The notes beneath the pieces are model-generated. The model was not told the origin of the DNA, ran no database searches, and worked only from the letters and a program-made list of their open reading frames with translations. Made by a program: the position numbers and the translations under genes. Shown here one piece after another: positions 9,671 to 64,000 of a stretch of 64,000 nt of DNA (positions are counted from its first letter, which is position 1; each line of letters begins with the position of its first letter). This stretch comes from a virus. The stretch lies in the IMG/VR virus record IMGVR_UViG_3300042691_025267, positions 1-64,000 of that record, one strand, 5' to 3'.

Positions 9671-9671
9671 C

Positions 9672-39419: not shown

Positions 39420-39614
39420 CGTCGTTTACTCGCTTTCTCTATTTGTTTAGATTCTTCTTCTTTCAGTTTACCAAATTCTCTAATCATAAAGTTTCGCATG
39501 TAAACCGGCATTTGGTATAAATCCATCACACTAAACGCACCTTTTGAGTAATGAGCAACCGTCATTATGATTTTTAACGTTTCAGCTTTATACTCTTGAG
39601 TCAGGCCAAAAAAA
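39416..39614 (-). CDS. tail assembly chaperone C-terminal ORF (gp51/gpT-like), probably reached by frameshift
   Basis: FSVMDLYQMPVYMRNF....KEEE; frame is open across the T7 run near the end of the upstream gene. Confidence 0.65.
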
Positions 39615-40379: not shown

Positions 40380-40389
40380 AATAAATATC
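40380..40389 (-). promoter_or_regulatory. putative late promoter motif GATATTTATT
   Basis: At the head of the tail/baseplate operon, 27 nt upstream of the start. Confidence 0.55.
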
Positions 40390-42271: not shown

Positions 42272-42491
42272 TCTCTTCTGGAGTTTCTTCTATACGGACG
42301 TAGACCATATTTTCCATGTCTAACCGCCATCCGTTCTTGGGGTCAATTTGTAATATTTGCATCATTTGTATATTTGCTTCTTGAATTTCGGTCATCAATT
42401 GTGTCTGATAACTCTTTAATAGTGCATTATTTGACTTGATTAGATTTTGTAACGCAAGTGGAACATCTACCGTAACTTGTTTAGTGCTCAT
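42252..42491 (-). CDS. hypothetical protein
   Basis: 79 aa; GGAGG RBS. Confidence 0.65.
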   Translation of the reverse strand: MSTKQVTVDVPLALQNLIKSNNALLKSYQTQLMTEIQEANIQMMQILQIDPKNGWRLDMENMVYVRIEETPEENAPVTG

Positions 42492-43140
42492 GTATACCTC
42501 CTAAAAACATCTGTTTAATTTCTATTGCATTTTTTTCTGGGAACTGTTGTACCAATTTAGCCAGTTGTCCCGATACTCGTGCTGCTGCCAACGAAGTACC
42601 AGACGCTATCTGTGTTTCTCCGTCTAGTGTTGTAACTTCTACGTCAATCCCCAAGGCAATCACATCAACTTCTGGTCCAAAATTACTTCCCCGACCTTCT
42701 TCCCATGACATGACTTGATTATACATATCACATGCACCAACGCCAATTACTTCATTCATATTCACGGGAGAAAATTCAGAGGCTGGTCGCATTTCGTTTC
42801 CTGCTGCTGCAACTACAATAAACTTTGTAGGATCCAACTCTCGTATCTTATCGTCAATAATATGATGGCGTGGAACTGCCCATGCGCAGGTGACGATATT
42901 GACAGGTTCCGTTGCATCGTGTTGTATTGCGGTAAATGCTTCCATCATCTGTCCAAATGTACCCACTGAACCCAATCCAATTTTTACATTCTTTAGTAGA
43001 ACGTTGGGGTTAGTTCGTCTAATGACACTTGCTACTCCTGTGCCATGTCCATCTAGATCGTCAAACGTTCCATCATAGGTGTATACGTTTATCCCGTTTG
43101 GTATTCCACTGTCTACTACGTAAATTGTTACACTTCCCAT
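42481..43140 (-). CDS. subtilisin-like S8 peptidase, minimal catalytic domain
   Basis: Triad motifs VVDSGI, HGTGVAS, SGTSLAA; oxyanion AAAGN. Confidence 0.88.
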   Translation of the reverse strand: MGSVTIYVVDSGIPNGINVYTYDGTFDDLDGHGTGVASVIRRTNPNVLLKNVKIGLGSVGTFGQMMEAFTAIQHDATEPVNIVTCAWAVPRHHIIDDKIRELDPTKFIVVAAAGNEMRPASEFSPVNMNEVIGVGACDMYNQVMSWEEGRGSNFGPEVDVIALGIDVEVTTLDGETQIASGTSLAAARVSGQLAKLVQQFPEKNAIEIKQMFLGGIHEH

Positions 43141-43364
43141 TTACCTTTTGGACATGCACTTGGTCCTTTTGGACTATATACTTTTTTTGACAATGGACAT
43201 CCACATGCACCACAGATATGCGTCCGTATTAACATTTTAAACTCTTTGAACTCACACGCATCGCAAACTTCTGCTCTACGTTCAGCAGTTTCTTTTTGTT
43301 CAATAGTTGGATTACTGGCACGATGCCATGCAGTGATAATTTCTCGTATATCAGGAATATTCAT
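43128..43364 (-). CDS. Cys-rich small protein (DUF6171-like)
   Basis: ERRAEVCDAC...CGACGCPLSKK....ACPKGKW. Confidence 0.7.
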   Translation of the reverse strand: MNIPDIREIITAWHRASNPTIEQKETAERRAEVCDACEFKEFKMLIRTHICGACGCPLSKKVYSPKGPSACPKGKWEV

Positions 43365-44080
43365 ATTGGAAATTCATAATTAAAATATACAAAATCGTCG
43401 TGAAACAAATATTTCACCAAGTTCTTAAATTTTTCTGAGTTAATATCTATATTAATTTTTATTTTTTCCTTGGGTGTGATATTTTCTTGTTTAATTACAG
43501 ATGTGTCATATCCCAACGTGACTTCTATCCAATCATTAAATTCGTTTATATTTTCATATCTAAATATTTTAACCTTTGGTTTGTACGCCCATTCTACTTG
43601 AGTTGTAAAAAATGAGGACACAAACCCCGGTCCGTCTGCATCAAAAATTAACTGTAAATTATTTATATATTTTGGTACACAATTTTTATAAAACGAGTCA
43701 TAACAAAAATCGTAAAAAAACTTTTCCGATTGAAATATGTCTATAAAGTTAAATCCCTTCGTCCTTGGATCAGTTTCTTCAATTTTAATTCTTTGTTTTG
43801 AATCGACATCAAACTGATATGTGGTTTTATATACGTTTCCTTGTAAATACGAATCACGTTTAAACTTCATGAAATATAGTGCTGAAATAAATCTTTTATA
43901 CGGATTTCTTATTACGGTAAACGCCGGAATATCTATGTGTTCTTTAGTATATGGATCGTGTGTATGTAAAAAGTTTTCACCGATCTCTGGGAAAAATAAC
44001 TTCGTATATGCAATGGTTCCTGTTTTTGGTATTTTTATATAAAAAAACTTATTATTATTAATTCTTGAAGTAACTATCAT
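43361..44080 (-). CDS. sulfotransferase family 2 protein
   Basis: 5'-PSB IKIPKTGT, 3'-PB FTVIRNPYKRFISA, FRYENI, terminal DDF..FNY. Confidence 0.8.
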   Translation of the reverse strand: MIVTSRINNNKFFYIKIPKTGTIAYTKLFFPEIGENFLHTHDPYTKEHIDIPAFTVIRNPYKRFISALYFMKFKRDSYLQGNVYKTTYQFDVDSKQRIKIEETDPRTKGFNFIDIFQSEKFFYDFCYDSFYKNCVPKYINNLQLIFDADGPGFVSSFFTTQVEWAYKPKVKIFRYENINEFNDWIEVTLGYDTSVIKQENITPKEKIKINIDINSEKFKNLVKYLFHDDFVYFNYEFPI

Positions 44081-44081
44081 A

Positions 44082-45608
44082 TTAAGCTTGTGTAAAACAT
44101 TCACCATTAGAACATCCGCAACTGTACCCTTTGGGGGGGATAGCACCACAGGTCTGAAAGCAAAACCCTTCGCATGCAGCAGGTATTACCACTATTGTAC
44201 CATTTTCTTCTTTATATTGATACACTTCTTCCGTTGTAGATTCTTCTGGATCATTTATATATGTACCTATCAACAACGGGTATACTTCTAACTGTGTATC
44301 ATTTTGATCTACTACTTTGATAAATATTCTCGTATTTTTAACATAATTAACATCCGTTGGACTAAACCTAATAGTATTAGTAGTTGTGTCAATCGTAACC
44401 CACTCAGGATAATATCTACGTATGTTACCGAAAACAACATCATCTATGTCTATTCCATAGGCATATTGATCATTTAATTCTAATATTAATTCATACTCTG
44501 TACCAATCTGTACATTTATTTTTTCTTTCGGGATATTTTTTATAAACTTATCAAATGATGAGATGTATAGTATACTATTTGGTGTTGTGCCATAGATACT
44601 TTCATTTCTAAACAAAATATCAGTAATTCCACTATTAATTACTATGAATTGTATGTGGTATGCAGTAAGATTATTCGTTGAATTTAAATCTTTTATATAT
44701 TGTGCAACTACCCCCGACGTTAATGCAGCAGCAAGTGAAGTACCAGAAGATTCTTTTATAGTACCGTCTATGTTTAGAACATTAACTCCAATTCCTGGCG
44801 CAAAAATATCTACATCGGGCCCCCAGTTTGAACCAGCTCCACCCCCCCAACTAATAACTCTATCATATGGATCGGATGCACCTACACCTATCACCGTATC
44901 TAACCCCACGGGCGATAGATTATTTGCGTCTGACATGGTGTTACCTGCTGCGGCCACTACTACAAAATTACTATCTTGCAATTCTTTAATTTTTGTATCA
45001 AGAATTTTACTTCGTGGAATAGTCCATGAGCAATTTACTACAGCAACTTCGGTTATATCGGTTCGGTCTTGCAAAATTGCGTCAAATGCAAGTAACAAAT
45101 CACTTATGTTAATCACTGCTGCCATTTCAATTCTTACGTTTTTTAATTCTACGTTAGTTGCTACACCAAGTGTGCTACCAACTATTAGACTTGCCATAGC
45201 AGTACCGTGACCCAACTCGTCAGAAAAATCACCATTGAAACTATAACAGTTAACAATATTTGCGTCAACTAATTCTGGTAACGTTGCGTTTATTCCACTA
45301 TCAATCAAATAAACTTTTACTCCATCCCCATGATTTAATGGAAAATACTTTTCTTTCATTGGAAGTGCATTAGAAATAATTCTTAATTGGTGCCACTCCG
45401 AATTAGATGGATGTACTTCCGTACTCAAGTCTTCTTCTATATCTAATACACCAGATATGTTCGTAAATACGTCTTCTGATTCGCACGATACATTGACTAC
45501 CTGCATGGAAGTAAATATACGATTTACTACTATACCTTGATTGGTCATACTGCTAAGTAAATTTTCTATATTAATATCTTTTTCAAAAACTACATTATAG
45601 TTTTTCAT
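44082..45608 (-). CDS. S8 subtilase with prodomain, Ig-like domain and six-Cys C-terminal peptide
   Basis: LIDSGI, HGTAMAS, AAAGN, SGTSLAA; PEWVTID..T.TI Ig-like stretch; tail CEGFCFQTCGAIPPKGYSCGCSNGEC. Confidence 0.88.
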   Translation of the reverse strand: MKNYNVVFEKDINIENLLSSMTNQGIVVNRIFTSMQVVNVSCESEDVFTNISGVLDIEEDLSTEVHPSNSEWHQLRIISNALPMKEKYFPLNHGDGVKVYLIDSGINATLPELVDANIVNCYSFNGDFSDELGHGTAMASLIVGSTLGVATNVELKNVRIEMAAVINISDLLLAFDAILQDRTDITEVAVVNCSWTIPRSKILDTKIKELQDSNFVVVAAAGNTMSDANNLSPVGLDTVIGVGASDPYDRVISWGGGAGSNWGPDVDIFAPGIGVNVLNIDGTIKESSGTSLAAALTSGVVAQYIKDLNSTNNLTAYHIQFIVINSGITDILFRNESIYGTTPNSILYISSFDKFIKNIPKEKINVQIGTEYELILELNDQYAYGIDIDDVVFGNIRRYYPEWVTIDTTTNTIRFSPTDVNYVKNTRIFIKVVDQNDTQLEVYPLLIGTYINDPEESTTEEVYQYKEENGTIVVIPAACEGFCFQTCGAIPPKGYSCGCSNGECFTQA

Positions 45609-45637
45609 AATAATCCTCAATCAAAGTACTTGAATTT

Positions 45638-46225
45638 TCATATAAGTACGTCATTTATATTTAATAAATTTGCAGCCCACTGACGTTCCATGCAGAAGTA
45701 ACACCCACCACACTTCTCCACACCATCTTTATTTTTTATACCACATGACCTAGTTAATTTCAACAAATCCAACACATTCTCTGTAACATACAATTGCATT
45801 ATTTCTTTTTTATCCATATCAATAAACGGTCTGATATGTTTATCATTGTAAGGAGGGCCCCTAAACGGTGGTGTATCGTTTTTTATGTATATAGTGGGGG
45901 TAAATTCATCCGTTAGTACTTTATTACATCCACTATATACATACCCGCCTTCCGTCAATAATATGTTTTCCACCAACTCCCGTATATTGTAGTTTTTATA
46001 TAATTTTTTATTACTAAAGTTAATTCCTTTCATAGTAAACCATTCCTGTACTCTCTTTACATTATTCACCGCATCTGCGGTTGGCATCGTATACGAGAGA
46101 ATCGGGATGGTCCTATTTTCTTCATAGAGTTGCTTTTGTAATAAAAATAATAAAATAGAACTATCCATTCCGCCAGAAAATAATACGTTAATTTTTTCGC
46201 AGTCGGATGGTATTTTTATTGTCAT
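45638..46225 (-). CDS. QueC-like PP-loop ATPase
   Basis: FSGGMDSS, RPF..MDK, TRSC..CGGCYFCMER. Confidence 0.8.
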   Translation of the reverse strand: MTIKIPSDCEKINVLFSGGMDSSILLFLLQKQLYEENRTIPILSYTMPTADAVNNVKRVQEWFTMKGINFSNKKLYKNYNIRELVENILLTEGGYVYSGCNKVLTDEFTPTIYIKNDTPPFRGPPYNDKHIRPFIDMDKKEIMQLYVTENVLDLLKLTRSCGIKNKDGVEKCGGCYFCMERQWAANLLNINDVLI

Positions 46226-46238
46226 ATATAAGTATCAA

Positions 46239-47012
46239 TTATATTCCCATTTGCTTACGAATGTCGGTTGCGCTGATCGCTTCTGTGGACGCGTCCAGAT
46301 TGATTTTCTCCACCTTATAGCCCACATCTCTACCGTAATACACGCCGGTAATGTTTGGTAGGAATATCACTTCAAATTTTCCTTGATATTTGTCATTTAA
46401 TTTTTTATAAATGAAATCAGATACTTCTTCATAATCAAACGGATTCTTTTCATCAATGTTGTGGGTATTGCGGACCCCAATAAGTACCTGTCCTTCTTTT
46501 TCCAGGATGGTTTCAAACAATTTCAAATGACCATCGTGGAATGGCTGGAATCGTCCAATCATCAATCCTGTGGGTGCTTGCCAATCAAATTCTGGAACCG
46601 GCTCCATCTTTTTAGTAAGGCGTGCGATAATCTCGTCAGTTTGTTCACCGACATCACCCCATGCAGTAATTTCCACATCTACTACTTCTGGTCGTTGGAA
46701 TACCTTATTGGTGTCCTCAAACCGACCTTCGTTGATTGTATTCATAAACACGATATAGTCGGGAGCAAACGCATCTCTGGTTTCTTCTAATGGACACACG
46801 AAATCGGCAACTACGTGGTCTGAACTGGCAATATCGGCAAGATGATACATTCTATCCGCCTGTCGGAGCCGTCCTTCTTCACTGAAGTCCCAATCATTAA
46901 ACATCTTACGAACTTCGTCTGCATTAAAATATGCGGCTTTCAACTTCTCTGCCAACACTTTGGAAAGGGTCGTTTTTCCAGACCCCGGTAATCCCATAAC
47001 TAAAATTTTCAT
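46239..47012 (-). CDS. adenylylsulfate kinase-like domain fused to HxGH nucleotidyltransferase
   Basis: MGLPGSGKTT, NADEVR, DFSEEGR, ADFVCP; then IGRFQPFHDGH and ISATDIR. Confidence 0.82.
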   Translation of the reverse strand: MKILVMGLPGSGKTTLSKVLAEKLKAAYFNADEVRKMFNDWDFSEEGRLRQADRMYHLADIASSDHVVADFVCPLEETRDAFAPDYIVFMNTINEGRFEDTNKVFQRPEVVDVEITAWGDVGEQTDEIIARLTKKMEPVPEFDWQAPTGLMIGRFQPFHDGHLKLFETILEKEGQVLIGVRNTHNIDEKNPFDYEEVSDFIYKKLNDKYQGKFEVIFLPNITGVYYGRDVGYKVEKINLDASTEAISATDIRKQMGI

Positions 47013-47019
47013 ATAACCC

Positions 47020-47229
47020 TCATTCTTTAATTCCGTACGATACCCATTTGTACCATACTCGTTCGTGTAGAAAATATAACACCATTTTGGTCAGTACTTC
47101 CGCACCACCAATTGACAACCCAACTTTCCAATTACCCGATATGAGTCCTGCGAGTATTATGGTGTCTAGTGTACCAACAGCTCTCCAACTAATCGTCTTT
47201 GCTATATGTCGTTTTACATGTACTGTCAT
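47020..47229 (-). CDS. DUF2061 membrane protein
   Basis: RHIAKTISWR..GTLDT, E..TK..LYFLHERVW. Confidence 0.88.
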   Translation of the reverse strand: MTVHVKRHIAKTISWRAVGTLDTIILAGLISGNWKVGLSIGGAEVLTKMVLYFLHERVWYKWVSYGIKE

Positions 47230-47776
47230 AATATGAATAGTTAATTGCCCAAGTTCGTTCTATACAATTTAAACAACTTCCGCAATGTCCATATTTTTGT
47301 AAATAACAACTGTGCGTAAGTTCCAGTAGTTCCCAAATATTTTCGTTCCTATATAATTGGACTACTTCGTGCTTATACATATCTTTGAATGGTATCAAGA
47401 CTTGTGGATATTCAAAAAATTTTCTCTCTGGAAACTGAGGCATAAATTTATTACTTCCGATAACAAACTGATCCACCTCTCCAGTTCTTAGATACAATTT
47501 AATCCACCTAGTAAACGTTCTATTACTTGTTGAATCTTTATCGTTAATTTCTTCTGGTGGTATTATACTTGTGTTTAGTTTTGTGTTTATCCAACTTAAA
47601 ATATTACGAATTCTATCCATACAAATCGTTGATTGAATCATTGTATAACACCGTATGTTTACATTCAATTTAGCTAATAGGTATAATAGCAACGAACTCT
47701 CTAGGCCACCTGACAAATATAGTCCAATATTATTTGTTGTTGGGCTTATACTAATTAAATTGGACACAGATGTCAT
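47189..47776 (-). CDS. QueC-like PP-loop ATPase
   Basis: LSGGLESS, PF..MYK, THSC..HCGSCLNCIER. Confidence 0.78.
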   Translation of the reverse strand: MTSVSNLISISPTTNNIGLYLSGGLESSLLLYLLAKLNVNIRCYTMIQSTICMDRIRNILSWINTKLNTSIIPPEEINDKDSTSNRTFTRWIKLYLRTGEVDQFVIGSNKFMPQFPERKFFEYPQVLIPFKDMYKHEVVQLYRNENIWELLELTHSCYLQKYGHCGSCLNCIERTWAINYSYYDSTCKTTYSKDD

Positions 47777-48411
47777 AAGTATGTAATACTTGGTTCCAAT
47801 AATTCATAGTCGTCTTTATATAGATTCATACACATCTCTTGTATTTTTTGCATGTCTCTAAATTTAGCAGGAGTAATATTAAAGTTATCAATTGCAGAAG
47901 GTCTAGCTTTTACAGTGTCGCCAAATGTTAAATAAATCCATTTTGTATACTGGTCCATTGATACAATTTTATACTCTTTTATGTCTTGGACGGATTCGTT
48001 ATAAGCAACCTCTATATTAACGGGTGGGATGTTATAAAAATAATCCATCTGGGATCTAGTGTGCATATCCAGTCTATAGTTTTTTAAAATCAATTCCTTT
48101 GCATTTAAAAAATCAGATAGTAAATCATGTCCACGACTTTTAGGAATAAATAATGGTATGTGTTCAACTTTAACAGTTTTATATAAAAATGGTTCGTATA
48201 TAAATTGATTGTAAAACGACAATAATCTTATGCATGGATCTCTATATAGGAAAGTTTTGTGTTCTGCTTCTGTAATTACATTTTTAAATATGGGAACGTG
48301 AGTCACATCTGTCAAATTGTACTTAAATACATTATTTACTAGATGTGATGATCCATTTCTTGAAGGAGTTACGATGAGATGCCTTTTTTTTAAATCATAA
48401 AACACTCGCAC
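47773..48411 (-). CDS. sulfotransferase-like protein
   Basis: PSRNGSS, LYRDP..RLLSFY, HT.SQ, LYKDDY. Confidence 0.65.
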   Translation of the reverse strand: MRVFYDLKKRHLIVTPSRNGSSHLVNNVFKYNLTDVTHVPIFKNVITEAEHKTFLYRDPCIRLLSFYNQFIYEPFLYKTVKVEHIPLFIPKSRGHDLLSDFLNAKELILKNYRLDMHTRSQMDYFYNIPPVNIEVAYNESVQDIKEYKIVSMDQYTKWIYLTFGDTVKARPSAIDNFNITPAKFRDMQKIQEMCMNLYKDDYELLEPSITYL

Positions 48412-48434
48412 AAAAAATTCTCAACAAATTATAG

Positions 48435-49064
48435 TCAGAGATATGTAATGTTTGGTTCTAGTAATTCGTAATCGTCTTTATACAACGTCATACATAAATC
48501 TTGTATTCTTTGCATATTACGAAAATTAGAAGGATTGATGATAATACTATCTAACGCAGACGTTGATTGCGTAGTTTTTTTATCTACAAACGTCAGTTTT
48601 AGCCATTTGGCATATTGATTGATTGAAACTATTTCATAGTCACTTATATTTTGGTCATATCGTTCATCTTTGAAATAGTCACTCTGCGGGGTTGTATGAA
48701 AATCTTCCTTATAATTTTTTATCAATTTATCGGTAGCGAGAATCATATCAGATAGTAAATCGTTTCCACGAGTTACCGGTTTAAATAATTTATTGGCTAA
48801 ATTCGTATCTTGATCTTCCTTGGCAAATGTTTTTACTGCCTGTGTATCAAATACAAATCTTTTATAATATGACATCAGTCTAACACAGGGATCTCTGTAT
48901 AAAAAGGTTTTTTTCTCGACTTCCGAAATTATACCATTAAATATAGGACTGTGAGTTACCTCGGTTAATTTGTATTCTATTGCGTGATGATGTAGATGCG
49001 AAGATCCATTGCGAAATGGCACCACTATGAGATGTCGTTGACTTATATTGTAAAATATTTTCAT
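48435..49064 (-). CDS. sulfotransferase-like protein (paralog of 47773..48411)
   Basis: PFRNGSS, LYRDP..RLMSYY, HTTPQ, LYKDDY. Confidence 0.65.
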   Translation of the reverse strand: MKIFYNISQRHLIVVPFRNGSSHLHHHAIEYKLTEVTHSPIFNGIISEVEKKTFLYRDPCVRLMSYYKRFVFDTQAVKTFAKEDQDTNLANKLFKPVTRGNDLLSDMILATDKLIKNYKEDFHTTPQSDYFKDERYDQNISDYEIVSINQYAKWLKLTFVDKKTTQSTSALDSIIINPSNFRNMQRIQDLCMTLYKDDYELLEPNITYL

Positions 49065-51367: not shown

Positions 51368-51381
51368 ATAATTATCCGTAA

Positions 51382-53131: not shown

Positions 53132-53143
53132 TTTATGGATCTC

Positions 53144-55661: not shown

Positions 55662-55662
55662 A

Positions 55663-56916: not shown

Positions 56917-56952
56917 CAAAACCCCTCAACTTAAAGTAATTTTTAATATATA

Positions 56953-57966
56953 TTATTCAATTTCAATTGCATCGTATTTTAATATATTGTTTATTAAAAT
57001 TGGTTTTATTATATCGGGATAGGTTGTTCCCAACTTTATAGCATGTTCTTTGTTTGCCAAAAGTTTATCTTTAACTTTATTATACAATAAAAACTGGTCT
57101 TTCCTTGACAATAAATTAAGTCTGTGTATTTCTAATACAGCCATTTCAAATCTACGAACGTCATCTTCTATAGAATCAAATGAATAATCAAATATTTCCT
57201 CATATAATTCAAATCCAAGTTCTTTCAACCATAAATTATAATTTATTTTGTTGATCACAATAAATGGTTTCTTTAAAAATAAAGGAATTGTAGTTTTTTC
57301 CGTTATGAAATAATGATCTATTGTTGATTCATTTACTAGTTGTATAAACGAATTATTGTATTCTGACGGTAGAGTTCTAAATGGGTTTGGTGCGGTGAGA
57401 AACTTCTCGTCCAAAACAAGTTGTTTTTCTTTCCAGTATAGAAATTCGTAGGCATAATCCGTATATTTTCTGGTAGGTATTATCCAAGAAATTGCTTGAT
57501 CATCAATCAAATTATGTTTTTGCAATAGATCCATCATTAAACATCTGTGTGGATGTGGTCTATTATTTAGAGATATTAATGTATATTTAATATCTGCTTC
57601 GGAGTTTAATTCATATGCAAATCTATCTAAATCACCAGGTTCATCAAACCCATTATTTTGCAATGATACATTAAAAAATGCAGTTTCCCACGGAACAACA
57701 TTCTTTATACAGTTAAATTTAGTAGAAGTAATATCGTGCAATAAAGCTTCCGTAGATTTCCAGCAATTAACAATGGTTATATTAATATGTTTTTCATTTG
57801 CCCAATCCAATAAAACATCAAAATTAAAAGAACCGTCTGCGCTGAAGAATGATACATAATTATGTTCTTGTTCATTTACCAGTATGACCTCGTTAATATC
57901 TTGTCTTTCCCGTAATGAGTTAATGTCTATTAGATCTGCTGCTCTAGTTCCTATATACAGTCTCAT
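56953..57966 (-). CDS. putative glycosyltransferase-like phage protein
   Basis: SLNNRPHPHR, LVNES, ITEKT..P...KKPFI, LGFELY.EIFDYSFD. Confidence 0.5.
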   Translation of the reverse strand: MRLYIGTRAADLIDINSLRERQDINEVILVNEQEHNYVSFFSADGSFNFDVLLDWANEKHINITIVNCWKSTEALLHDITSTKFNCIKNVVPWETAFFNVSLQNNGFDEPGDLDRFAYELNSEADIKYTLISLNNRPHPHRCLMMDLLQKHNLIDDQAISWIIPTRKYTDYAYEFLYWKEKQLVLDEKFLTAPNPFRTLPSEYNNSFIQLVNESTIDHYFITEKTTIPLFLKKPFIVINKINYNLWLKELGFELYEEIFDYSFDSIEDDVRRFEMAVLEIHRLNLLSRKDQFLLYNKVKDKLLANKEHAIKLGTTYPDIIKPILINNILKYDAIEIE

Positions 57967-57969
57967 ATA

Positions 57970-59277
57970 TCATCTCAATGTTTCCCAAAAGTCCAGTTGT
58001 ATATTTTTATGTCTACTTTTAAGTACTTCAAAATTGTGATCCACTACTTCGTTCGTTTCTTGAATAAATTGTGATTTTTTTGCATGACTCCATGAATCAA
58101 TTTCTTTACATACATTTGAAATTGCAAAAACTCGTTCGCGATGGTTGTCAATAGTATCATAACTTTCATCAAACCAATTAGAAAATGTTCTATAGCCCTT
58201 TTTCTTTAATGATACCAAAGAATTTGGTGCACCAACTAAAATAAACGGGTGTCTATATTTAATAGGCTTGAACGTCTTTTCTGTTTCTGCAATTGCATGT
58301 TGATATGCGTGGGTTTCCGTTACAACACTTAATAAAGTACCTTTATAAAAATGCTCAGTAGAATGTCCTATTTCCATTGTCATTTCTGCATGTCTCGTAT
58401 GATCAGATGACAGGTGATCTATTTTTAATGGCAGAATATATTGTTGAATATACTGTAGTTCTTCTTCCGAAATATCCAGCTGTTGCGCAATGTTACGATC
58501 TACCGTCTCTATAAATGAATTTGGAGACTCAGGATTTTTTTCAGGAAATGTAAACAAAGAACTTCCCAATAAATTTTGTTTGTAGAATGCCAAAAACAAA
58601 TCAAGTCTATGTGGTCTGTATCTATAATTTAAACTCAAGAAAGTTTTATGTATGTGTCTGATGTGTCGGTCGTTTACATACTCTCGGTTTGTCAATTGTT
58701 TTGACATATTCCACTCAAACGAATCCCAACAAAATATTTTAAGTCTGTTAGATGTGGGTGTATTACGTTGATCACAAAAGTTTTGGTATAAATCATCTCC
58801 ATTTGGACATCCCGTCATATAAATTACTTTATGCGGTGGTATTTGATGATTTAAAAAGTATTGTTCCATTAGATGAAAAAAGTTTGGATATACGAAAGAT
58901 TCCATAGAAAAATCAAGTAACATGTATCCTTTCCCATTCCTAAGTCCATCCATCACTCTACTAGATACTTTAGAATTTTCAAATAATCCAGTGGGAACTC
59001 CAAACGTAAATAAAGATTCCGCAGTTGTTTTATAAATGTATTGAAAATCGTATATAAAAATATCTTCTCTAGTAACTTCACTGGCAGATTTTAATACAAA
59101 GTTTTCGGGAAATTTTGATAACACCTCTTTATAAAAGTATGCGGACGTTGCCCTACGATTATCAGATATCGTTACATTTTCCACGGATAATGCAAGATCA
59201 TAAATGTTTGGCATTCGTGCATTACATAATGGACCTTGTGGTCCTATCCATTCGTAAATTACATTTATTTTAGTCAT
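57970..59277 (-). CDS. putative glycosyltransferase-like phage protein
   Basis: FLSLN.R.RPHR, SVVTET, TEKTFKPI..RHPFI, GYRTFS.WFDESYD. Confidence 0.5.
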   Translation of the reverse strand: MTKINVIYEWIGPQGPLCNARMPNIYDLALSVENVTISDNRRATSAYFYKEVLSKFPENFVLKSASEVTREDIFIYDFQYIYKTTAESLFTFGVPTGLFENSKVSSRVMDGLRNGKGYMLLDFSMESFVYPNFFHLMEQYFLNHQIPPHKVIYMTGCPNGDDLYQNFCDQRNTPTSNRLKIFCWDSFEWNMSKQLTNREYVNDRHIRHIHKTFLSLNYRYRPHRLDLFLAFYKQNLLGSSLFTFPEKNPESPNSFIETVDRNIAQQLDISEEELQYIQQYILPLKIDHLSSDHTRHAEMTMEIGHSTEHFYKGTLLSVVTETHAYQHAIAETEKTFKPIKYRHPFILVGAPNSLVSLKKKGYRTFSNWFDESYDTIDNHRERVFAISNVCKEIDSWSHAKKSQFIQETNEVVDHNFEVLKSRHKNIQLDFWETLR

Positions 59278-60154
59278 TATTTATTATAGTATAAATTTGA
59301 TTTGCTACTGATATTTGGTGTTTTTCGCCGAAATGAACCCCATCGTATGCTGGAAAGATGTAGTCACTTCCCGAAAAATACCAACCACTTAATCCTTTGG
59401 TAAAATCAACTACATGTGGAACTATTCCTGTATATTGATTAAAATCTTCTATATTACAATTCCACATACTATTGATCAGTAAGTTATAAACTTTTACGTT
59501 TAACGCTTTTAGTAATACATTAACCGCACAATAATCTTCTATGAAATCATTGCTCCACATAGTATTTGACAGTATTGCCTTATCATAAACATCATTGATT
59601 ACTCTATCGTGTAAATCTAATGCAGGATCAATTTTCCATTTTACATTTAAGTGCTGTGGAGCGCCACCCTCTCGTATGAAAGTTTTTCTTGTCGGTTCAG
59701 TCCAAAGAATTAACACTCGTTCTGGCAACGGCATTCCAGACAAGACCCACGAAAATAATGTATGTTTTACATATTTTGCGCTGGATCCTCCTTTCCCTAA
59801 ATTAAGTATTTTCGTATTCAATTTACCTTCTAGGTGATGTACCCACATTTCTGTATGACGTACACCAATTCCCTCGGTAAACGAACATCCAATTGCAATA
59901 TCAAATTTTCTATCTTGTACAGTAGAAAACTCATAAGTTCTATATCCCATAGAATTATAGGTATAGAAATCATCTTCCATTTCATAATAAGGCCAGTCAG
60001 AAGATGGAATGTTCAATACTTTTATTTTTTCTAAAAACTCTAGATACTGTCTTTCACTATAAGTACCGTCAAACTTAGAACTACCGACGTTTCCATAAAA
60101 ATGGGCAAAATTGAACAGTTGATTGTACTTATGTGTTGGAGAAAACTTAAGCAT
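59270..60154 (-). CDS. SGNH hydrolase-like protein
   Basis: YNSMGYR, IGCSFTEG, NLGKGGSS, DGVHFG. Confidence 0.68.
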   Translation of the reverse strand: MLKFSPTHKYNQLFNFAHFYGNVGSSKFDGTYSERQYLEFLEKIKVLNIPSSDWPYYEMEDDFYTYNSMGYRTYEFSTVQDRKFDIAIGCSFTEGIGVRHTEMWVHHLEGKLNTKILNLGKGGSSAKYVKHTLFSWVLSGMPLPERVLILWTEPTRKTFIREGGAPQHLNVKWKIDPALDLHDRVINDVYDKAILSNTMWSNDFIEDYCAVNVLLKALNVKVYNLLINSMWNCNIEDFNQYTGIVPHVVDFTKGLSGWYFSGSDYIFPAYDGVHFGEKHQISVANQIYTIINND

Positions 60155-61124
60155 TACTAAAACTCCGTTTAGGAATAATGATATCTGTCCCGCAGTGGCA
60201 ATGGTATTTATTGCAAGAAATAGTTTTCGGACCAACTCCGTCAACGTTTTCTAAAATATGTCCCACGTTGCCAGACAATCCGCAACTAGCCATTGATACA
60301 TATCCCGCTGGGTTGATAAAAATACTGTCACCAATGTCACAGTCCCATCCAGTAAAAAAGTTTTCCCGTTTAATAATCAATTCGTTACTATTAGTGGGGG
60401 AGGTTGACCCATCGTCCCATCTGTTAAGAGAAACTGCTTGACTTTCCTTGTAAATTTTATTCGGTGGCCATTTTACTTCCAAATCCCGATGTTCTTCCAG
60501 CCACCTATCTTTAAAAGATTCCTTATATTTCCAAGGTGAAGCGTTTCCCGACATTTCGTCAAATAACGGAGTCCACTCAATAACATATCCAGGAAGTTTT
60601 TCTTTTAACATTTCCCCGTACTCTACTACTTCCCAAAAACGTTCCTCGTGCATCAACATTTTATTACAAAAATAACTAATCTTGTCACACATTAATAAAC
60701 TATTTTCAAGATATCGTTGTTTGTTTACACTTTCAATGTGAAAACTTGCCACAACATCATCAAATAAATGATAATATTTTTCCCACCAATCCGTAGCGCG
60801 ACTGAGATTGGTGTTAATTGCTATCGTGTTGTTTGGGGTATATTCTTTAAAAAATTCTACTACTGGTAATAGGTTCTTCCAGATGGTTGGTTCTCCACCA
60901 CTTAGGTATATTTTAAATGCATCATATCCACCGTCTAAATACCTGTCAACGATCAATTTTAAATTTTTTAAATATATATTTAAATTTTGACTGTTTTTAT
61001 GGTTACCACTCCAGTTACCAGGATTACAATATGAGCATTTATAATTACAATGATCATTTACCTGCCACGTGATGGCTAAGTATTTAGTTTTTGGATAAAT
61101 TTCTAAGAGTTTTTTCTCAGCCAT
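60147..61124 (-). CDS. radical SAM protein with C-terminal Cys cluster
   Basis: CNYKCSYC, SGGEPT, INTNLS; C-terminal C..C..C...CHC. Confidence 0.9.
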   Translation of the reverse strand: MAEKKLLEIYPKTKYLAITWQVNDHCNYKCSYCNPGNWSGNHKNSQNLNIYLKNLKLIVDRYLDGGYDAFKIYLSGGEPTIWKNLLPVVEFFKEYTPNNTIAINTNLSRATDWWEKYYHLFDDVVASFHIESVNKQRYLENSLLMCDKISYFCNKMLMHEERFWEVVEYGEMLKEKLPGYVIEWTPLFDEMSGNASPWKYKESFKDRWLEEHRDLEVKWPPNKIYKESQAVSLNRWDDGSTSPTNSNELIIKRENFFTGWDCDIGDSIFINPAGYVSMASCGLSGNVGHILENVDGVGPKTISCNKYHCHCGTDIIIPKRSFSNA

Positions 61125-62395
61125 AGATATAGTTCCGTTAATTCAGGTATACTTTCGTACCACAGTTCATTTCTAAGTCCATCGTATTTTTTATTCTTAT
61201 CAAAAAATTCTTTCAATAAACCTACATTTGCTTCTGCTTTTTCTAATGCACCACACACAGTTCTAAATTGCCCAACGTTTTGCTCATACTGTTCGGAATC
61301 CAAATATTTACCCTTGATCCAGTGGAAATGGTACCACCACTTGTCTTCCAACTTAGCAGCAATTTCTCGTGGTAGATTACCTATATTCATTTCTGGAGGA
61401 TACGTTAAAATGTTTAATCGTAAACCAGATACGTCAATCAACCCTTCCTCTATGAGCCACCGATGAAAATCTGGAAAACTGAACACGTTGAATAGTGATA
61501 TTGTCGGAGTTATTCCTAATTTTACATGCGGTACGTATTTCTTAATATCAAGTAAATTTTTATGTATTTGTTTCCACTCGGTACCATGACGCAACAATTC
61601 TGCAACATCATCTCGACCATCTAAACTAGCCCAAATCTGTACGTTCGGAAATTTTTCCCAGTACTCAATTGCATGTTTATTTTTATACCGAAGAGTCAAT
61701 AAATTTGTAGTGTACGTTAGTTCCACATTAGTATGATTGTGTTCTATCCAATAATCCAAAATATCATAATGTTCGTTCGTAATTAACGATTCTCCTCCGG
61801 CAAAATACACTTCTTCCGTATCCAATAAGTATGGCTTTAATTTAGTCAGTAGAGTTCCATCGTCGTTTGCGTTTACTACAGTACTGTCCATATTAAAGAA
61901 TTTTTTTAGATCCTTTTTACCAGACTTACCCTGCATCTTGACAAATTCATCTGCCCATCTACTACTACATCCCGGTCCACACGTACGACACTTCATATTA
62001 CAAATATTACTAAAGCGTATATCTAAGTATTTTAGTTTAAACTTGTTAATTGATCCATCTGTATTAGTACTTTCTACCAAATCAATTGACTGTTCATATC
62101 GTCTGGCATTATTTGATTTACGCATGGACCAAATACCCATATCTTCCAAATCATAACACCGTTTGCAAACGTCAACATATTCATCGTTTAACATTTTTAA
62201 ACGCATCTCATTAAAATCTGGACTGTTCATAATATCCAGTACGGTGTCTTTATCTGTAGAAGATACAGGCTTATTAGAGTCTGCTATACAACATGGCATA
62301 ACTCGTTTATCTGGCCATGCATGAAAATGTATCCACGGCAGAATACAAAAATGTTTTGTTTCTGAAATAACCGGTAATTGTTTAGATAGACTCAT
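61103..62395 (-). CDS. radical SAM protein with N-terminal SPASM/twitch-like domain
   Basis: FCILPW..PCC..CKRC, then CNMKCRTC, YFAGGE, YTTN, ASLDG. Confidence 0.9.
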   Translation of the reverse strand: MSLSKQLPVISETKHFCILPWIHFHAWPDKRVMPCCIADSNKPVSSTDKDTVLDIMNSPDFNEMRLKMLNDEYVDVCKRCYDLEDMGIWSMRKSNNARRYEQSIDLVESTNTDGSINKFKLKYLDIRFSNICNMKCRTCGPGCSSRWADEFVKMQGKSGKKDLKKFFNMDSTVVNANDDGTLLTKLKPYLLDTEEVYFAGGESLITNEHYDILDYWIEHNHTNVELTYTTNLLTLRYKNKHAIEYWEKFPNVQIWASLDGRDDVAELLRHGTEWKQIHKNLLDIKKYVPHVKLGITPTISLFNVFSFPDFHRWLIEEGLIDVSGLRLNILTYPPEMNIGNLPREIAAKLEDKWWYHFHWIKGKYLDSEQYEQNVGQFRTVCGALEKAEANVGLLKEFFDKNKKYDGLRNELWYESIPELTELYLWLRKNS

Positions 62396-63626
62396 ACCAT
62401 TCCTTTAATTCTGGGTAGGTTTCTGAAAAGTTGTCGTTGCGGATACTATCAAAGTGTTGCGTGAGTTGTTTAAACTTCAGTTGGTGTTCTCGTACAGGGT
62501 CTAATTCTTCTTGAATAAAATGATAAATATCTGTTAATCCGTGCGCAATTGGACCATCTGGTGCGGTTTCTAACCACTGACCAATTTTACTCTTTATATC
62601 ACGTTTCATTTCTCTCGTAAATACGTTGTTTAAATTATAATGGTCAGGATTTATAAGTTTGTAAAAAGAACAGTGCGTATTATGTAAATCTATTACTTGG
62701 TGTTGTTGTAAATTTTCTAAAAATTCTATAATAGTATATGCGTTAAACACTCCCACCACACAATTAAATCGTATTGATACGGTTGGGCAGTTATTCCGAA
62801 TGAACTGTAGGTTTCCTATTACTTCACTCCACACGGTACCCTTTCGCATATACTCTGCTCTCGCACCAAATGAGTCCAGACTGGCATAAAATTCTACTTG
62901 TTTAAATTTATTCCATAGATCAGTAACGTGTGTATTACCAAATTTTAATTTACTACTGTTACTGTTATATCGCAAAACAAGATCCGTATTATTATTCTCA
63001 ATCAAGAACTGGAGTATTTCGTAGTGTTCGGGAGTAATCAGTGGTTCCCCACCTGCAAAATATAACATTTCCAATTCTCCTAGATGTGGCTTAAACTGCT
63101 CTAAAAGATTTGGATTTCCATTTGATGCATGCATCAATCCATTAACTTCGCCGTATCCTTGTTTGAAGGATTCGGCCGCCCACGTGGAAGAAAACATATC
63201 TCCACACGTACGACATTTAAAATTACACAAGTTACTGAACCGTACGTCGAAATATTTTAGATGCATACCAGGAAGATATCCATCATTTTCTGTTACTTTA
63301 GTTAAATCAAAATGATGACCAAACTCATTATTTGCAAAATTACGAAATGAAAAACCACCGCCTCCAGTAGATTCGTGCTTATAACAATTTGCACATCCAT
63401 CAACTCGTTCTCCAGCAAGTAATTTTTTACGAATTACTTTTAAATCCTCACCATTCCAAATTTCATCAATTGTTTGTTCACGAACGTTACCTATTGGATT
63501 TTCGTATTTTGTAGTACAGCACGGGTACGTGGCCCCATCTGTGTTCACATACAGATGAAGCCACGGAAACATACAAAATGTTTTATTATGTGTTAATAAC
63601 TGGGAGAGTTCTGGATGTTGATTCAT
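62382..63626 (-). CDS. radical SAM protein with N-terminal SPASM/twitch-like domain
   Basis: FCMFPW..PCC..CANC, then CNFKCRTC, YFAGGEP, ASLDS. Confidence 0.9.
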   Translation of the reverse strand: MNQHPELSQLLTHNKTFCMFPWLHLYVNTDGATYPCCTTKYENPIGNVREQTIDEIWNGEDLKVIRKKLLAGERVDGCANCYKHESTGGGGFSFRNFANNEFGHHFDLTKVTENDGYLPGMHLKYFDVRFSNLCNFKCRTCGDMFSSTWAAESFKQGYGEVNGLMHASNGNPNLLEQFKPHLGELEMLYFAGGEPLITPEHYEILQFLIENNNTDLVLRYNSNSSKLKFGNTHVTDLWNKFKQVEFYASLDSFGARAEYMRKGTVWSEVIGNLQFIRNNCPTVSIRFNCVVGVFNAYTIIEFLENLQQHQVIDLHNTHCSFYKLINPDHYNLNNVFTREMKRDIKSKIGQWLETAPDGPIAHGLTDIYHFIQEELDPVREHQLKFKQLTQHFDSIRNDNFSETYPELKEWYESI

Positions 63627-64000
63627 TTGCCCCACTCAAGTAAAACGTTTTATATTCAGGAAATGTTTCTGGAAAGTTTGTGCCGCGTCGTTTATCATAT
63701 TCAGTAAACCAGTTATAAAAGTCTTTACGAGCTTCCTCAAGTTTATCTTCTGAATATACTGTATTTTCCATGTATTTAACCACCCGACGAAACCGCTCAA
63801 GTTCCAACTCAGAGAACTTTGTGACATCGTTTTCGTCAGTATTCTCTTCCATAAATGTAAGGTGACTGTGCATATAAGGCATGAACTCTTCTTTTGGTAA
63901 GATGTTCATATCATACTGCAAAGGTTCTTTTAAGTATGGAGTATCAAACCGAATCTTTCTTTCCAATGGTCTTATTTGATCGTCTGGAATAATATCGTTG
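63586..64000 (-). CDS. C-terminal part of a probable further radical SAM protein (truncated by window)
   Basis: FDTPYLKEP..MNILP and DF..WF.EYDKRRGTNF.ETFPE resemble the C-termini of the two adjacent radical SAM proteins. Confidence 0.6.
   Translation of the reverse strand, partial: NDIIPDDQIRPLERKIRFDTPYLKEPLQYDMNILPKEEFMPYMHSHLTFMEENTDENDVTKFSELELERFRRVVKYMENTVYSEDKLEEARKDFYNWFTEYDKRRGTNFPETFPEYKTFYLSGANESTSRTLPVINT

Follow-up and report, generated by a model that had tools for sequence, protein, structure and literature searches.

A four-module block of putative glycan-tailoring genes beside the tail genes of an uncultured phage

Introduction

What would a phage build with sulfotransferases, a carbamoyltransferase, SGNH-like proteins, glycosyltransferases and radical SAM enzymes encoded back to back, and on which acceptor? 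The question is raised by the first 64,000 nucleotides of IMG/VR record IMGVR_UViG_3300042691_025267 (the window), where a first-pass annotation had proposed a complete pathway for a decorated glycan or glycopeptide. Families, folds and synteny uphold phage-encoded tailoring of this kind; a single complete pathway is not upheld, because its modules occur separately in other phages. We propose, with a probability of roughly 0.45, that the block is a mosaic of soluble cytoplasmic enzymes that build and edit a glycan, and that the acceptor is most likely a phage protein, here a mucin-like threonine/proline-repeat protein encoded beside them. We found no published description of such a phage product in the literature searched.

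Results

Within the window, the tailoring block comprises 26 minus-strand ORFs, close to the roughly 25 first counted. Of these, 23 encode 195–512 aa, the last being truncated at the window end, and three are small (79 aa, 78 aa and a 69-aa DUF2061 protein); intergenic spacers run from −98 to +33 nt. The GC content of the block (0.31–0.37, against 0.37–0.45 in positions 1–42,000) agrees with its description as AT-richer than the replication core. The island, initially put at 21.5 kb or more, continues past position 64,000 to about 38 kb and about 40 genes, all on a single strand, and extends as far as the viral contig itself (80,386 bases), the window holding its promoter-distal two thirds. 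The contig represents about one third of the genome, probably ~250 kb, of an uncultured giant phage whose host is probably a member of Flavobacteriia. SNF2 and a T4-type baseplate gene directly follow the block (Table 1), where the annotation had placed the SNF2 gene and a tail operon.

The block is a composite of four modules. Module D (42.5–49 kb), syntenic in close kin, holds sulfation, PP-loop and S8 protease genes; module C, the carbamoyltransferase and six SGNH-like paralogs; module B, N-terminal-twitch radical SAM enzymes (NCBIfam NF033640), GT-B glycosyltransferases and a micropeptide; and module A, which lies past the window end, a mucin-like protein with PSVTQT repeats and two homologues of GT60 polypeptide-GlcNAc-transferases. 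Almost all of the families first named were verified. Relatives keep the gene order within each module, and the catalytic motifs of the block are intact. Families, folds, motif integrity, synteny and co-occurrence are established.

Table 1. Features of the tailoring block and its surroundings (contig coordinates).
Feature	Position	Strand	Evidence or remark
Two TET-associated glycosyltransferase (TAGT) genes	12062-14175		
T4-type baseplate gene	39588-40352		after tailoring block, with SNF2
SNF2	40388-42271		directly after tailoring block
Tailoring block, window part	42252-64000	-	26 back-to-back ORFs
Short S8 subtilase, 219 aa	42481-43140	-	PF00082 E 6e-20; D, H, S motifs visible
Cys-rich small ORF, 78 aa, filling apparent gap	43128-43364	-	weak zinc-ribbon-like matches
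Putative sulfotransferase, Sulfotransfer_2-like	43361-44149	-	Pfam E 7e-4; PKTGT, RNPYKRFIS motifs
S8 protease, 512 aa, proteinase-K subfamily	44082-45620	-	proteinase K E 1.5e-25
PP-loop ATPase, QueC-like C-terminus	45638-46225	-	SGGMDS motif; syntenic in kin
APS-kinase-like P-loop kinase + HxGH nucleotidyltransferase fusion	46239-47012	-	homology
DUF2061 small membrane protein, 69 aa	47020-47229	-	Pfam E 2.8e-21
Second PP-loop ATPase, QueC-like	47189-47776	-	homology
Two putative Sulfotransfer_2-like paralogs	47773-48411, 48435-49064	-	YRDPCxRLxS motif; 49% identical
NodU/CmcH-type carbamoyltransferase, both domains	49065-50561	-	PF02543 E 1e-44; PF16861 E 5e-57
Five SGNH-like paralogs (50555, 51382, 52187, 53144, 53920)	50555-54666	-	family HMM
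GT-B glycosyltransferase-like, family C	54654-55661	-	paralog of 57970
UDP-glucose/GDP-mannose dehydrogenase family	55663-56919	-	three Pfam domains
Two more GT-B family C paralogs	56953-57966, 57970-59277	-	predicted fold
Sixth SGNH-like protein, family F12	59270-60244	-	family HMM
Short radical SAM protein without twitch domain	60147-61124	-	PF04055
Two N-terminal-twitch radical SAM enzymes	61103-63635	-	NF033640, 371 and 363 bits
Third N-twitch radical SAM gene	63586-64000, on to 65004	-	NF033640, 326 bits
ORF	65001-65642	-	
Micropeptide	65620-65742	-	
B12 radical SAM	65717-67936	-	
GT-A-fold protein	67951-69072	-	
Anp1-like GT	69072-69764	-	
Mucin-like PT-repeat protein	70292-71563	-	
Small ORF	71579-71764	-	
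Small ORF	71778-72011	-	
ORF	72013-72876	-	
MT+HtrL_YibB	72918-75263	-	
GT2-like	75646-76446	-	
GT60 paralogs	77441-78694, 78691-79965	-	PF11397, E 9e-53 and 7e-67

In module D, the D/H/S triad is visible in both of the S8 proteases first reported. The two are 44% identical, and the longer, kept in nine viral loci, has a propeptide-like region at its N-terminus and ends in a Cys-rich tail. For the putative sulfotransferases and the SGNH-like proteins, the assignment combines motifs with Pfam scores below threshold and a lead from a language model. Motifs and Atlas clusters favor the three sulfotransferases that had been called: the protein at 43361 pairs PKTGT with RNPxxRxxS but, at 20.3 bits, stays just under the Pfam cut-off of 22, and a homologue occupies the same place in two kin loci (L094 and L096); the nearest named Atlas clusters of the other two are PF03567 (Sulfotransfer_2) at 0.96. 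The two proposed QueC-like proteins are PP-loop ATPases with SGGxDS/SGGxES motifs, but the match to QueC is limited to the C-terminal 50 aa. In the predicted APS kinase fusion, the N-terminal domain is indeed CysC-like (29% identity over 168 aa to flavobacterial CysC, E 7e-11) and its partner is an HxGH nucleotidyltransferase closest to NMN adenylyltransferases; the fusion is 71% identical to its counterpart in kin, and no sulfate adenylyltransferase (ATP sulfurylase) was detected among the ORFs scanned in the 80 kb. DUF2061, whose closest relatives are from Flavobacteriaceae (64–71% identity), is tied to cysC/D/N/Q in bacteria: in 22 of 80 loci 1–147 nt separate it from cysC, and cysD or cysN is nearby in 45–46. 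Gene order at this sulfation/S8 end is retained in kin whose SNF2 is 70% identical.

The carbamoyltransferase of module C is present in 63 related loci. A single family HMM matches all six SGNH-like proteins (E 4e-56 to 1.5e-7), in keeping with the six first listed, but Pfam GDSL matches fall below threshold. In the five paralogs a G[DC]S[FWY]T block lies close to the N-terminus and HPN marks a block towards the C-terminal end; the sixth, of family F12, immediately follows radical SAM genes in 15 loci. GT-B family C is present in 72 loci, and its model (pLDDT 86) has only GT-B proteins as top Foldseek matches. In VIA, the best structural match is T4 beta-glucosyltransferase (Z 12.9), with other GT-B enzymes at 11–11.7 and alpha-glucosyltransferase at 10.5.

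At least four radical SAM proteins had been noted; the window holds four, and a fifth, B12-dependent, lies beyond it. The short one scores 40 bits against NF033640 (cut-off 170 bits), and in the N-twitch enzymes the cluster Cys residues and the GGE motif are invariant. Module B was found in more than 200 viral contigs, where its core of radical SAM, GT-B and carbamoyltransferase genes is conserved. Two settings suggest a fibre-like target: i) in jumbo phages the core comes after a tail-fibre-like gene with a sub-threshold match to Peptidase_G2, an autoproteolytic chaperone domain (23.8 bits; Pfam cut-off 25), and ii) a Bacteroidota genome encodes a secreted, fibre-like protein bearing a Peptidase_S74 chaperone domain in a locus that contains two N-twitch and two B12 radical SAM genes together with genes for a carbamoyltransferase, a GT2 and a GDSL protein.

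Module A, at 70–80 kb of the contig, provides a concrete candidate substrate for the glycopeptide option of the first-pass annotation. The PSVTQT repeats of the mucin-like protein have an 18-nt, in-frame period, and its homologues share the same build with differing repeat sequences. The mucin-like/GT60 set recurs in 11 viral contigs; in all eight loci with enough flank, the mucin-like gene has GT60 paralogs no more than about 8 kb away, and less than 5 kb away in seven of them. A homologue of the ORF at 72013 is always directly upstream in these loci, and of the 11, 7 have the MT/HtrL gene and 5 a carbamoyltransferase. No DxD motif is present in the GT-A-like protein. GT60-type enzymes are known to modify Thr in Thr-rich mucin peptides with alpha-GlcNAc (PMC3769586); this activity, the in-frame repeats and the proximity of the GT60 genes make the mucin-like protein the most likely acceptor, and the product would therefore probably be a virion fibre or surface decoration.

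Modules A and B are each found without the other in near-complete genomes, leaving a single complete pathway unsupported. Two kin genomes (89–90% complete) carry the mucin-like/GT60 module but no N-twitch radical SAM gene, and no PT-rich ORF lies less than 10 kb from any of 80 radical SAM loci. The radical SAM module must thus have another acceptor elsewhere, and may have one in this phage also.

Proposed product and alternatives

For glycosylation of the mucin-like protein we infer the substrates, the order of steps and the location of the product as follows. GT60 enzymes would place the first GlcNAc onto Thr of the PT repeats, and GT-A and GT-B transferases would extend the chain. The UDP-sugar dehydrogenase would supply uronic acid, perhaps amidated by the PP-loop ATPases, and the N-twitch and B12 radical SAM enzymes would oxidize, epimerize or C-methylate sugars. 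O-carbamoylation by the carbamoyltransferase, addition or removal of acyl groups by SGNH-like proteins, and sulfation by the three sulfotransferases using PAPS from the APS-kinase fusion would then follow, with the S8 proteases perhaps processing the protein.

The block may instead yield no single product, being a hypervariable accessory region in which three or four unrelated modules (glycoprotein, radical SAM, sulfation/protease) act on different targets. Every module is seen without the others in other phages, the low GC is consistent with accreted accessory DNA, and only the lineage of this phage has the S8, QueC-like and sulfotransferase genes. Yet all 40 genes lie on one strand with ends overlapping or touching, and carbamoyltransferases, SGNH-like proteins and glycosyltransferases turn up repeatedly alongside module A as well as module B, which suggests a shared chemistry acting on related substrates; we regard this alternative as unlikely.

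Three further readings are less likely than an O-glycan on a phage-encoded protein. In a remodelling of the host cell surface, the enzymes would act on the infected Flavobacterium's LPS, capsule or secreted glycoproteins and not on virion proteins, for instance to exclude superinfection or to block re-adsorption of progeny. Polysaccharides are the usual substrates of the NodU/NodH-like, HtrL_YibB, Anp1-like and SGNH families, DUF2061 and the APS kinase resemble flavobacterial genes adjoining polysaccharide sugar-nucleotide genes, and similar carbamoyltransferases occur in cyanophages. Against this, each block ORF has at most one hydrophobic segment, the Pfam matches of the ORFs scanned include no lipid-carrier (Und-P) priming transferase, flippase, polymerase or export component, and the GT60 genes are tightly linked to the phage-encoded PT-repeat protein. 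The lack of ORFs with several membrane segments and of a priming transferase or flippase among these matches points to cytoplasmic protein glycosylation, and surface remodelling seems to us improbable.

A peptide-derived product, which we rate lower still, would use the micropeptide (...LKELRKRDPFIYK) as a precursor or scaffold like MftA or PqqA: radical SAM enzymes would modify its C-terminal Tyr region, a protease would release it, and glycosylation (as for mycofactocin), carbamoylation and sulfation would follow. The micropeptide gene sits inside the radical SAM module, in this phage between the B12 radical SAM gene and the ORF at 65001. It occurs in 72 of 82 loci and is near-invariant, ending in ...RKRDPFIY, the tail being unchanged at the protein level over 66 DNA versions with free synonymous change; the module's enzymes, by comparison, share 25–35% identity. 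S8 proteases are also a classical type of leader peptidase. However, the proteins scanned yielded no PqqD/RRE-type domain, the jumbo-phage clade is without S8 genes, two bacterial N-twitch radical SAM loci are missing the peptide motif, the gene downstream varies (carbamoyltransferase 39 times, F11 12, F15 10 and F24 8), and the very basic, helical micropeptide looks more like a binding partner.

Hypermodification of phage DNA, with GT-B and tailoring enzymes building a decorated sugar on hydroxymethylated bases, is very improbable: the T4 match, the two TAGT genes and the presence of another UDP-sugar dehydrogenase-like gene within the replication module are set against many generic GT-B enzymes scoring no more than 1–2 Z units below the top match, no TET found in 80 kb, the poor fit of GT60, mucin-like protein, S8 proteases and a place beside tail genes to a DNA target, and TAGT in none of 39 related records searched (six at least 90% complete), so that the radical SAM/GT-B module is not linked to TAGT.

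Comparison with known systems

Three island genes resemble NF033640 (N_Twi_rSAM) in score, in the N-terminal auxiliary Cys domain and in the CxxxCxxC and GGE motifs, and differ in being tandem paralogs inside a phage island. Among the best 120 of 1,977 relatives, nearly all are unnamed or "hypothetical protein", with a few generic radical-SAM labels; the databases searched gave no functional name and the literature searched no paper. With mycofactocin and PQQ the island shares a small conserved peptide with a C-terminal Tyr motif among auxiliary-cluster radical SAM enzymes and a glycosyltransferase, but here the auxiliary domain sits at the N-terminus, an RRE/PqqD domain was not found, the micropeptide is dissimilar to MftA and PqqA, and a peptidase accompanies it in this lineage only.

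Virion glycosylation by phage-encoded glycosyltransferases in mycobacteriophages (Freeman et al. 2023, cited in PMC12801897) is a further parallel. Shared features are phage GT genes beside structural genes and a phage protein as presumed acceptor. The mycobacteriophage system reportedly has a few GTs and, to our knowledge, no radical SAM, sulfation, carbamoylation or SGNH layers, no GT60 and no separate mucin-like repeat protein. The GT60 enzymes of Trypanosoma cruzi and Dictyostelium, members of PF11397, have a counterpart in the two island PF11397 proteins encoded beside a Thr-rich repeat protein; the eukaryotic enzymes reside in the Golgi or cytoplasm, whereas the activity, sugar and acceptor of the phage GT60 proteins are putative. 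The Nod-factor system (NodU, NodH, NodPQ) likewise brings together a NodU-family carbamoyltransferase, Sulfotransfer_2-type enzymes and an APS-kinase homologue. Neither a NodP/NodQ-type sulfurylase nor NodABC was found in the island, and in place of a lipo-chitooligosaccharide its acceptor is probably a protein-linked glycan.

Layout and extent of the tailoring island

All sizeable ORFs between 42252 and 64000 lie on the minus strand: 23 ORFs of 195–512 aa together with three small ones, the last large ORF being cut by the window end. Neighbouring island ORFs overlap or are spaced by at most 33 nt, and the apparent gaps at 42272–42480, 43141–43360 and 47013–47188 are occupied by ORFs of 79, 78 and 69 aa. 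The GC content is 0.31–0.37 in the island vs 0.37–0.45 over the window's replication and tail genes. ORF layout and GC thus bear out the co-oriented, tightly packed, AT-rich block that the first-pass annotation had placed at 42481–64000. The window takes up the initial 64 kb of a viral record of 80,386 bases, which CheckV rates 32% complete; the same-strand block runs on to 79965, close to the contig end, so that about 40 genes are spread over ~38 kb.

The T4 late-promoter motif TATAAATA shows no enrichment (5 occurrences vs 8.5 expected), and sigma-70-like promoters and terminators occur at chance level within 42000–61999. No close isolate turned up: with the island as query, megablast gave no match in 50,697 phage records. 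Elsewhere in the window, a ClpP-family protease is encoded among clamp-loader genes, and the tail region carries a 1216-aa protein with a DUF2272 domain.

Features in and beyond the window (ORFs are named by start coordinate; L002 is a retrieved stretch of the same virus contig)
Feature	Position	Strand	Remark
SusC-like TonB-dependent receptor	5879–8566	-	895 aa
ClpP-family protease	9077–9682	-	
Two paralogous TET-associated glycosyltransferase (TAGT) genes	12062–14175	-	adjoining DNA polymerase
Shorter UDP-glucose/GDP-mannose dehydrogenase-like gene	26937–27797	-	286 aa
DUF2272-domain protein	29454–33104	-	
T4-type baseplate protein	39588–40352	-	after the island, same strand as SNF2
SNF2	40388–42271	-	next after the island, same strand
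S8 protease	44082–45620	-	512 aa
Remainder of third N-twitch radical SAM gene	from 64000	-	beyond window
ORF 65001		-	beyond window
40-aa micropeptide	65620–65742 (L002 3620–3742)	-	beyond window
B12-radical SAM gene		-	beyond window
GT-A-fold protein (67951)		-	beyond window
Anp1-like GT		-	beyond window
423-aa Ser/Thr/Pro-rich repeat protein	70292–71563	-	beyond window
Small ORFs, 61 and 77 aa	71579–71764 and 71778–72011 (L002 9579–10011)	-	fill the spacer
287-aa ORF (72013)		-	beyond window
Methyltransferase+HtrL_YibB protein		-	beyond window
GT2-like protein		-	beyond window
Two GT60 (PF11397) paralogs	77441 and 78691	-	beyond window

N-twitch radical SAM enzymes and their gene neighbourhoods

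The radical SAM genes noted in the first pass have firm Pfam/NCBIfam matches. Taking membership of NF033640 as a whole-protein score over the NCBI curated cut-off of 170 bits, ORFs 61103, 62382 and 63586 are full members (370.6, 362.7 and 326.3 bits); the short radical SAM ORF 60147, at 40 bits, is not. The auxiliary domain, Cys-rich and twitch/SPASM-like, is N-terminal, with a SPASM Pfam match at residues 17–85 ahead of Radical_SAM at 127–296 and its CxxxCxxC core. In an alignment of 18 diverse N-twitch members, C21, C84, C137, C141, C144 and G195–E197 (GGE) are invariant and C81 is conserved in at least 90%. The chemistry that these enzymes would perform in the island is putative.

An IMG/VR search with one N-twitch radical SAM protein yielded 203 relatives, of which 80 loci were retained; the ORFs of the retained loci were clustered into families and counted over 82 loci. 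The radical SAM family has 427 members in 82 loci, about five per locus, followed by the GT-B family (147 members, 72 loci), the GT-A-like family of ORF 67951 (83 members, 67 loci) and the carbamoyltransferase family (64 members, 63 loci). The order common to the close kin of this virus (L003–L012) is B12-radical SAM, micropeptide, ORF 65001 family, three N-twitch radical SAM, short radical SAM, SGNH-like and GT-B. For this radical SAM module (module B), gene order is strongly conserved in contigs of 200–350 kb, where the module stands behind a tail-fibre-like gene in which Pfam detects an autoproteolytic chaperone domain only weakly.

Among isolated phages, N-twitch relatives were found only in RsoM2USA, Vibrio phages K566 and K567 and one marine single-virus contig, all of them weak. 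The protein database holds 1,977 relatives, with no functional name among the matches listed, and a literature search found no paper describing this module. N-twitch genes occur in only 3–4 of 401 Bacteroidota genomes, and are in tandem there too. One such bacterial locus (L193+L194; genome G121, contig C2, 1200000–1236000) carries N-twitch and B12 radical SAM genes, two of each kind, and a carbamoyltransferase, along with GT2, GDSL, methyltransferase, PhyH, WelO5-like oxygenase and CN_hydrolase genes; the DPFIY micropeptide motif is absent from it. In addition, the locus encodes a fibre-like, T9SS-sorted protein of 842 aa carrying a Peptidase_S74 chaperone domain. This neighbourhood parallels that of the tail-fibre-like gene in jumbo phages and favours, as a single case, a fibre-type protein as the acceptor.

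A conserved micropeptide

The micropeptide, whose gene has the B12-radical SAM gene on one side and ORF 65001 on the other, ends in KKRDPFIYY. It recurs (...LKELRKRDPFIYK) in 72 of the 82 related loci, Ralstonia phage RsoM2USA among them; the loci that lack it are mostly truncated. Of the isolates RsoM2USA, K566 and K567, RsoM2USA alone showed the micropeptide. Its last 13 residues are nearly invariant across 66 distinct DNA versions, with up to six synonymous codons per position, which argues that it is translated and under strong purifying selection. The downstream gene varies (carbamoyltransferase 39 times, the ORF families F11, F15 and F24 12, 10 and 8 times), so that a strict partnership with the carbamoyltransferase is ruled out and the micropeptide is a component of module B, where it may act as a substrate, scaffold or subunit.

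A peptide-derived product would recall the mycofactocin and PQQ systems, in which a radical SAM enzyme with a C-terminal SPASM domain is joined by a precursor peptide, an RRE/PqqD chaperone and a peptidase. A conserved peptide is indeed present here, but the auxiliary domain of the island enzymes is N-terminal, the peptidase is lineage-specific, and no PqqD/RRE match was obtained in the proteins scanned.

Glycosyltransferases, carbamoyltransferase and SGNH-like proteins

The three GT-like proteins recognized earlier (54654, 56953 and 57970) form one paralog family. The model of 57970 (pLDDT 86, pTM 0.87) has a GT-B fold with two Rossmann-like domains; all 19 Foldseek matches listed at E up to 1e-3 are GT-B, and structural comparison of the model by VIA gave Z 9–12.9 across 260–310 residues. 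PDB sequence searches were uninformative for 57970, 67951, GT60, 43361, 45638, 72013 and the profile of the GT-B family. The NodU-type carbamoyltransferase is secure, with Carbam_trans_N (153 bits) and Carbam_trans_C (192 bits) both over the gathering score, and so is the UDP-sugar dehydrogenase, which has a firm Pfam match. A second, shorter dehydrogenase-like gene, lacking the C-terminal domain, is found in the replication module, far from the island.

The six proteins called SGNH-like are all covered by one family HMM; their Pfam GDSL scores, however, reach only 15–18 bits vs the cut-off of 32.9. A G[DC]S[FWY]T motif lies close to the N-terminus in all six, and an HPN block close to the C-terminus in most.

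The PP-loop, S8 protease and putative sulfation end

Both S8 proteases are firm assignments (Pfam 72 and 79 bits), with the triad motifs DSGI, HGT and GTSLAA in both paralogs; their nearest solved relative is proteinase K (E 1.5e-25). In the 512-aa S8 protease the N-terminus resembles a propeptide, a signal peptide is absent, and seven Cys fall within the C-terminal 35 residues. The pair described as QueC-like are PP-loop ATPases whose likeness to QueC is restricted to the C-terminal zinc motif. The island role of the S8 proteases and PP-loop enzymes is putative.

Of the three sulfotransferases that had been proposed, ORF 43361 has a PKxGT 5'-PSB and an RxPxxRxxS 3'-PB motif, with PF03567 at 20.3 bits vs a cut-off of 22; its paralogs 47773 and 48435 have a 3'-PB-like motif only and no Pfam match, together with a language-model (Atlas) lead of 0.96 to Sulfotransfer_2 clusters. 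The presumed APS kinase fusion resolves into a P-loop kinase, predicted to be an APS kinase, and an HxGH nucleotidyltransferase nearest to NMN adenylyltransferases. PF01583 matches the kinase domain at 26.5 bits (cut-off 21.1), confined to residues 3–81, and BLASTP aligns it with a flavobacterial CysC at 29% identity over 168 aa (E 7e-11).

DUF2061, also a firm Pfam match, is 64–71% identical to Flavobacteriaceae proteins. Across 80 bacterial DUF2061 loci, cysD is found in 46, cysN in 45, cysC in 22 and cysQ in 19; where present, cysC is always 1–147 nt from DUF2061, and sugar-nucleotide epimerase genes often adjoin. A DUF2061–APS kinase fusion was not seen among the best 120 longer homologues, which are tandem DUF2061 proteins. 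The phage pair of DUF2061 and APS-kinase-like genes repeats the bacterial arrangement, which supports the view that the three putative sulfotransferases are supplied with PAPS. As the contig encodes no sulfurylase, APS would be provided by the host or made by the fused nucleotidyltransferase domain. The order of this end (QueC-like, kinase–nucleotidyltransferase, QueC-like, S8, sulfotransferase, then SNF2 and baseplate) is kept only in the lineage of this virus (L091, L092, L094 and L096).

The SusC-like receptor in the window has CarboxypepD_reg, Plug and beta-barrel domains; its presence also points to a Bacteroidota host. TonB-dependent receptors are unusual phage cargo.

A mucin-like protein linked to GT60 enzymes

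Module A, beyond the window, encodes the 423-aa repeat protein, 53% Ser+Thr+Pro, in which PSVTQT/PTVTPS repeats with an 18-nt period flank a Cys-containing domain on both sides. N-terminal homologues in eleven viral contigs are 46–77% identical and lie in ORFs of 53–68% Ser+Thr+Pro, and a 653-aa database homologue keeps the N-terminus and middle domain with different PT repeats. Judged by these comparisons, the mucin-like ORF is a real gene family. A 72013 homologue is directly upstream in all eleven contigs. The ~440-nt spacer between 72013 and the mucin-like gene, the only large gap of the block, is filled by two conserved small ORFs, both with the N-terminal motif of the mucin-like protein, (F/Y)P(F/Y/L)G..S.S(Y/F)A..AS; the arrangement is kept in the related loci L195–L203.

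Both GT60 paralogs are well over the PF11397 cut-off (180 and 227 bits vs 21) and have no match in a PDB sequence search. GT60 paralogs lie at most ~8 kb from the mucin-like gene in 8/8 loci with enough flank, and within 5 kb in seven; of the 11 loci, seven also have a methyltransferase/HtrL gene and five have carbamoyltransferases. In T. cruzi and Dictyostelium, GT60-type enzymes initiate mucin-type O-glycosylation by adding alpha-GlcNAc onto Thr of Thr-rich peptides (PMC3769586). The gene linkage suggests that the PT-repeat protein may be the GT60 acceptor.

In kin whose SNF2 is 82–86% identical, module A lies only a few kb from SNF2, which argues that module A adjoined the tail genes first and that the other modules were apparently inserted in between in the lineage of this virus. 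Xanthomonas phage XacN1, an isolated jumbo phage (L206, 213153–232499), carries a GT60 gene (41% identical) followed directly by a gene for a 765-aa carbamoyltransferase, and thus offers a culturable system with both. A GT9 gene and a ~9.9 kb gene for a giant hypothetical protein are also in this XacN1 neighbourhood. Further cultured phages with GT60 are Xanthomonas phage Xoo-sp13 and Stenotrophomonas phages CM1 and RAS14.

A model for the target of the island

Assortment of the genes is not random, gene order being kept within modules across related viral loci. The modules are separable: two kin genomes, 89–90% complete, have module A and no N-twitch radical SAM gene. The interpretation in the first-pass annotation is partly supported, and its single complete pathway is not demonstrated.

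Taken together, the island most likely serves to build an O-glycan in the cytoplasm, and to edit it chemically, on a protein that the phage itself encodes; in this genome the foremost candidate for that protein is the PT-repeat mucin-like one. As a general acceptor of the radical SAM module a PT-rich protein was rejected: the 80 radical SAM loci, like the S8 loci and the other GT60 loci, lack any PT-rich ORF. Put in full, the model would be a viral mucin: a virion-associated Thr/Pro-repeat fibre protein, its O-glycans initiated by GT60 and then sulfated, carbamoylated, acylated and rewritten by N-twitch radical SAM enzymes. We hold this full form tentatively, at a probability of roughly one in four.

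As for a host polysaccharide as target, the scan of the ORFs turned up neither a priming transferase or flippase nor a multi-pass membrane protein. That the island targets DNA is highly improbable: the GT-B model is closest to T4 beta-glucosyltransferase (Z 12.9), but many other GT-B enzymes follow at Z 11–11.7, no TET/JBP is encoded in the 80-kb contig, and none of the 39 related records carrying the radical SAM module, six of them at least 90% complete, has TAGT, so that a DNA-modification link of the module was rejected. Separately, this contig does carry a TAGT pair (PF20691, E 1e-20 and 9e-40), and the DNA of the phage probably bears sugars on hydroxymethylated bases.

Implications and comparison with known systems

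Thousands of metagenome proteins belong to the N-twitch radical SAM family, for which, to our knowledge, no reaction is known. On this contig the family is found alongside a candidate acceptor and a putative sulfation module, which provides concrete proteins to express. If true, the viral-mucin model would give the N-twitch enzymes a first function, glycan editing. It would also mean that tailed phages infecting aquatic Bacteroidota wear a coat of heavily decorated glycoprotein, which could influence adsorption to polysaccharide-rich marine particles, protease resistance and host recognition. Were the target instead the host surface or a peptide-derived molecule, the phage function would be just as unknown.

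Glycosylated virions have been described in a few phages and in giant viruses, and phage-encoded glycosylation beside structural genes is a known kind of system. We know of no tailed phage that makes a sulfated, carbamoylated, radical-SAM-edited glycan, nor of one that encodes a mucin-like acceptor protein. The island stands apart through how far its tailoring goes, through a radical SAM family that is uncharacterised, and through its putative sulfation module and candidate mucin-like acceptor.
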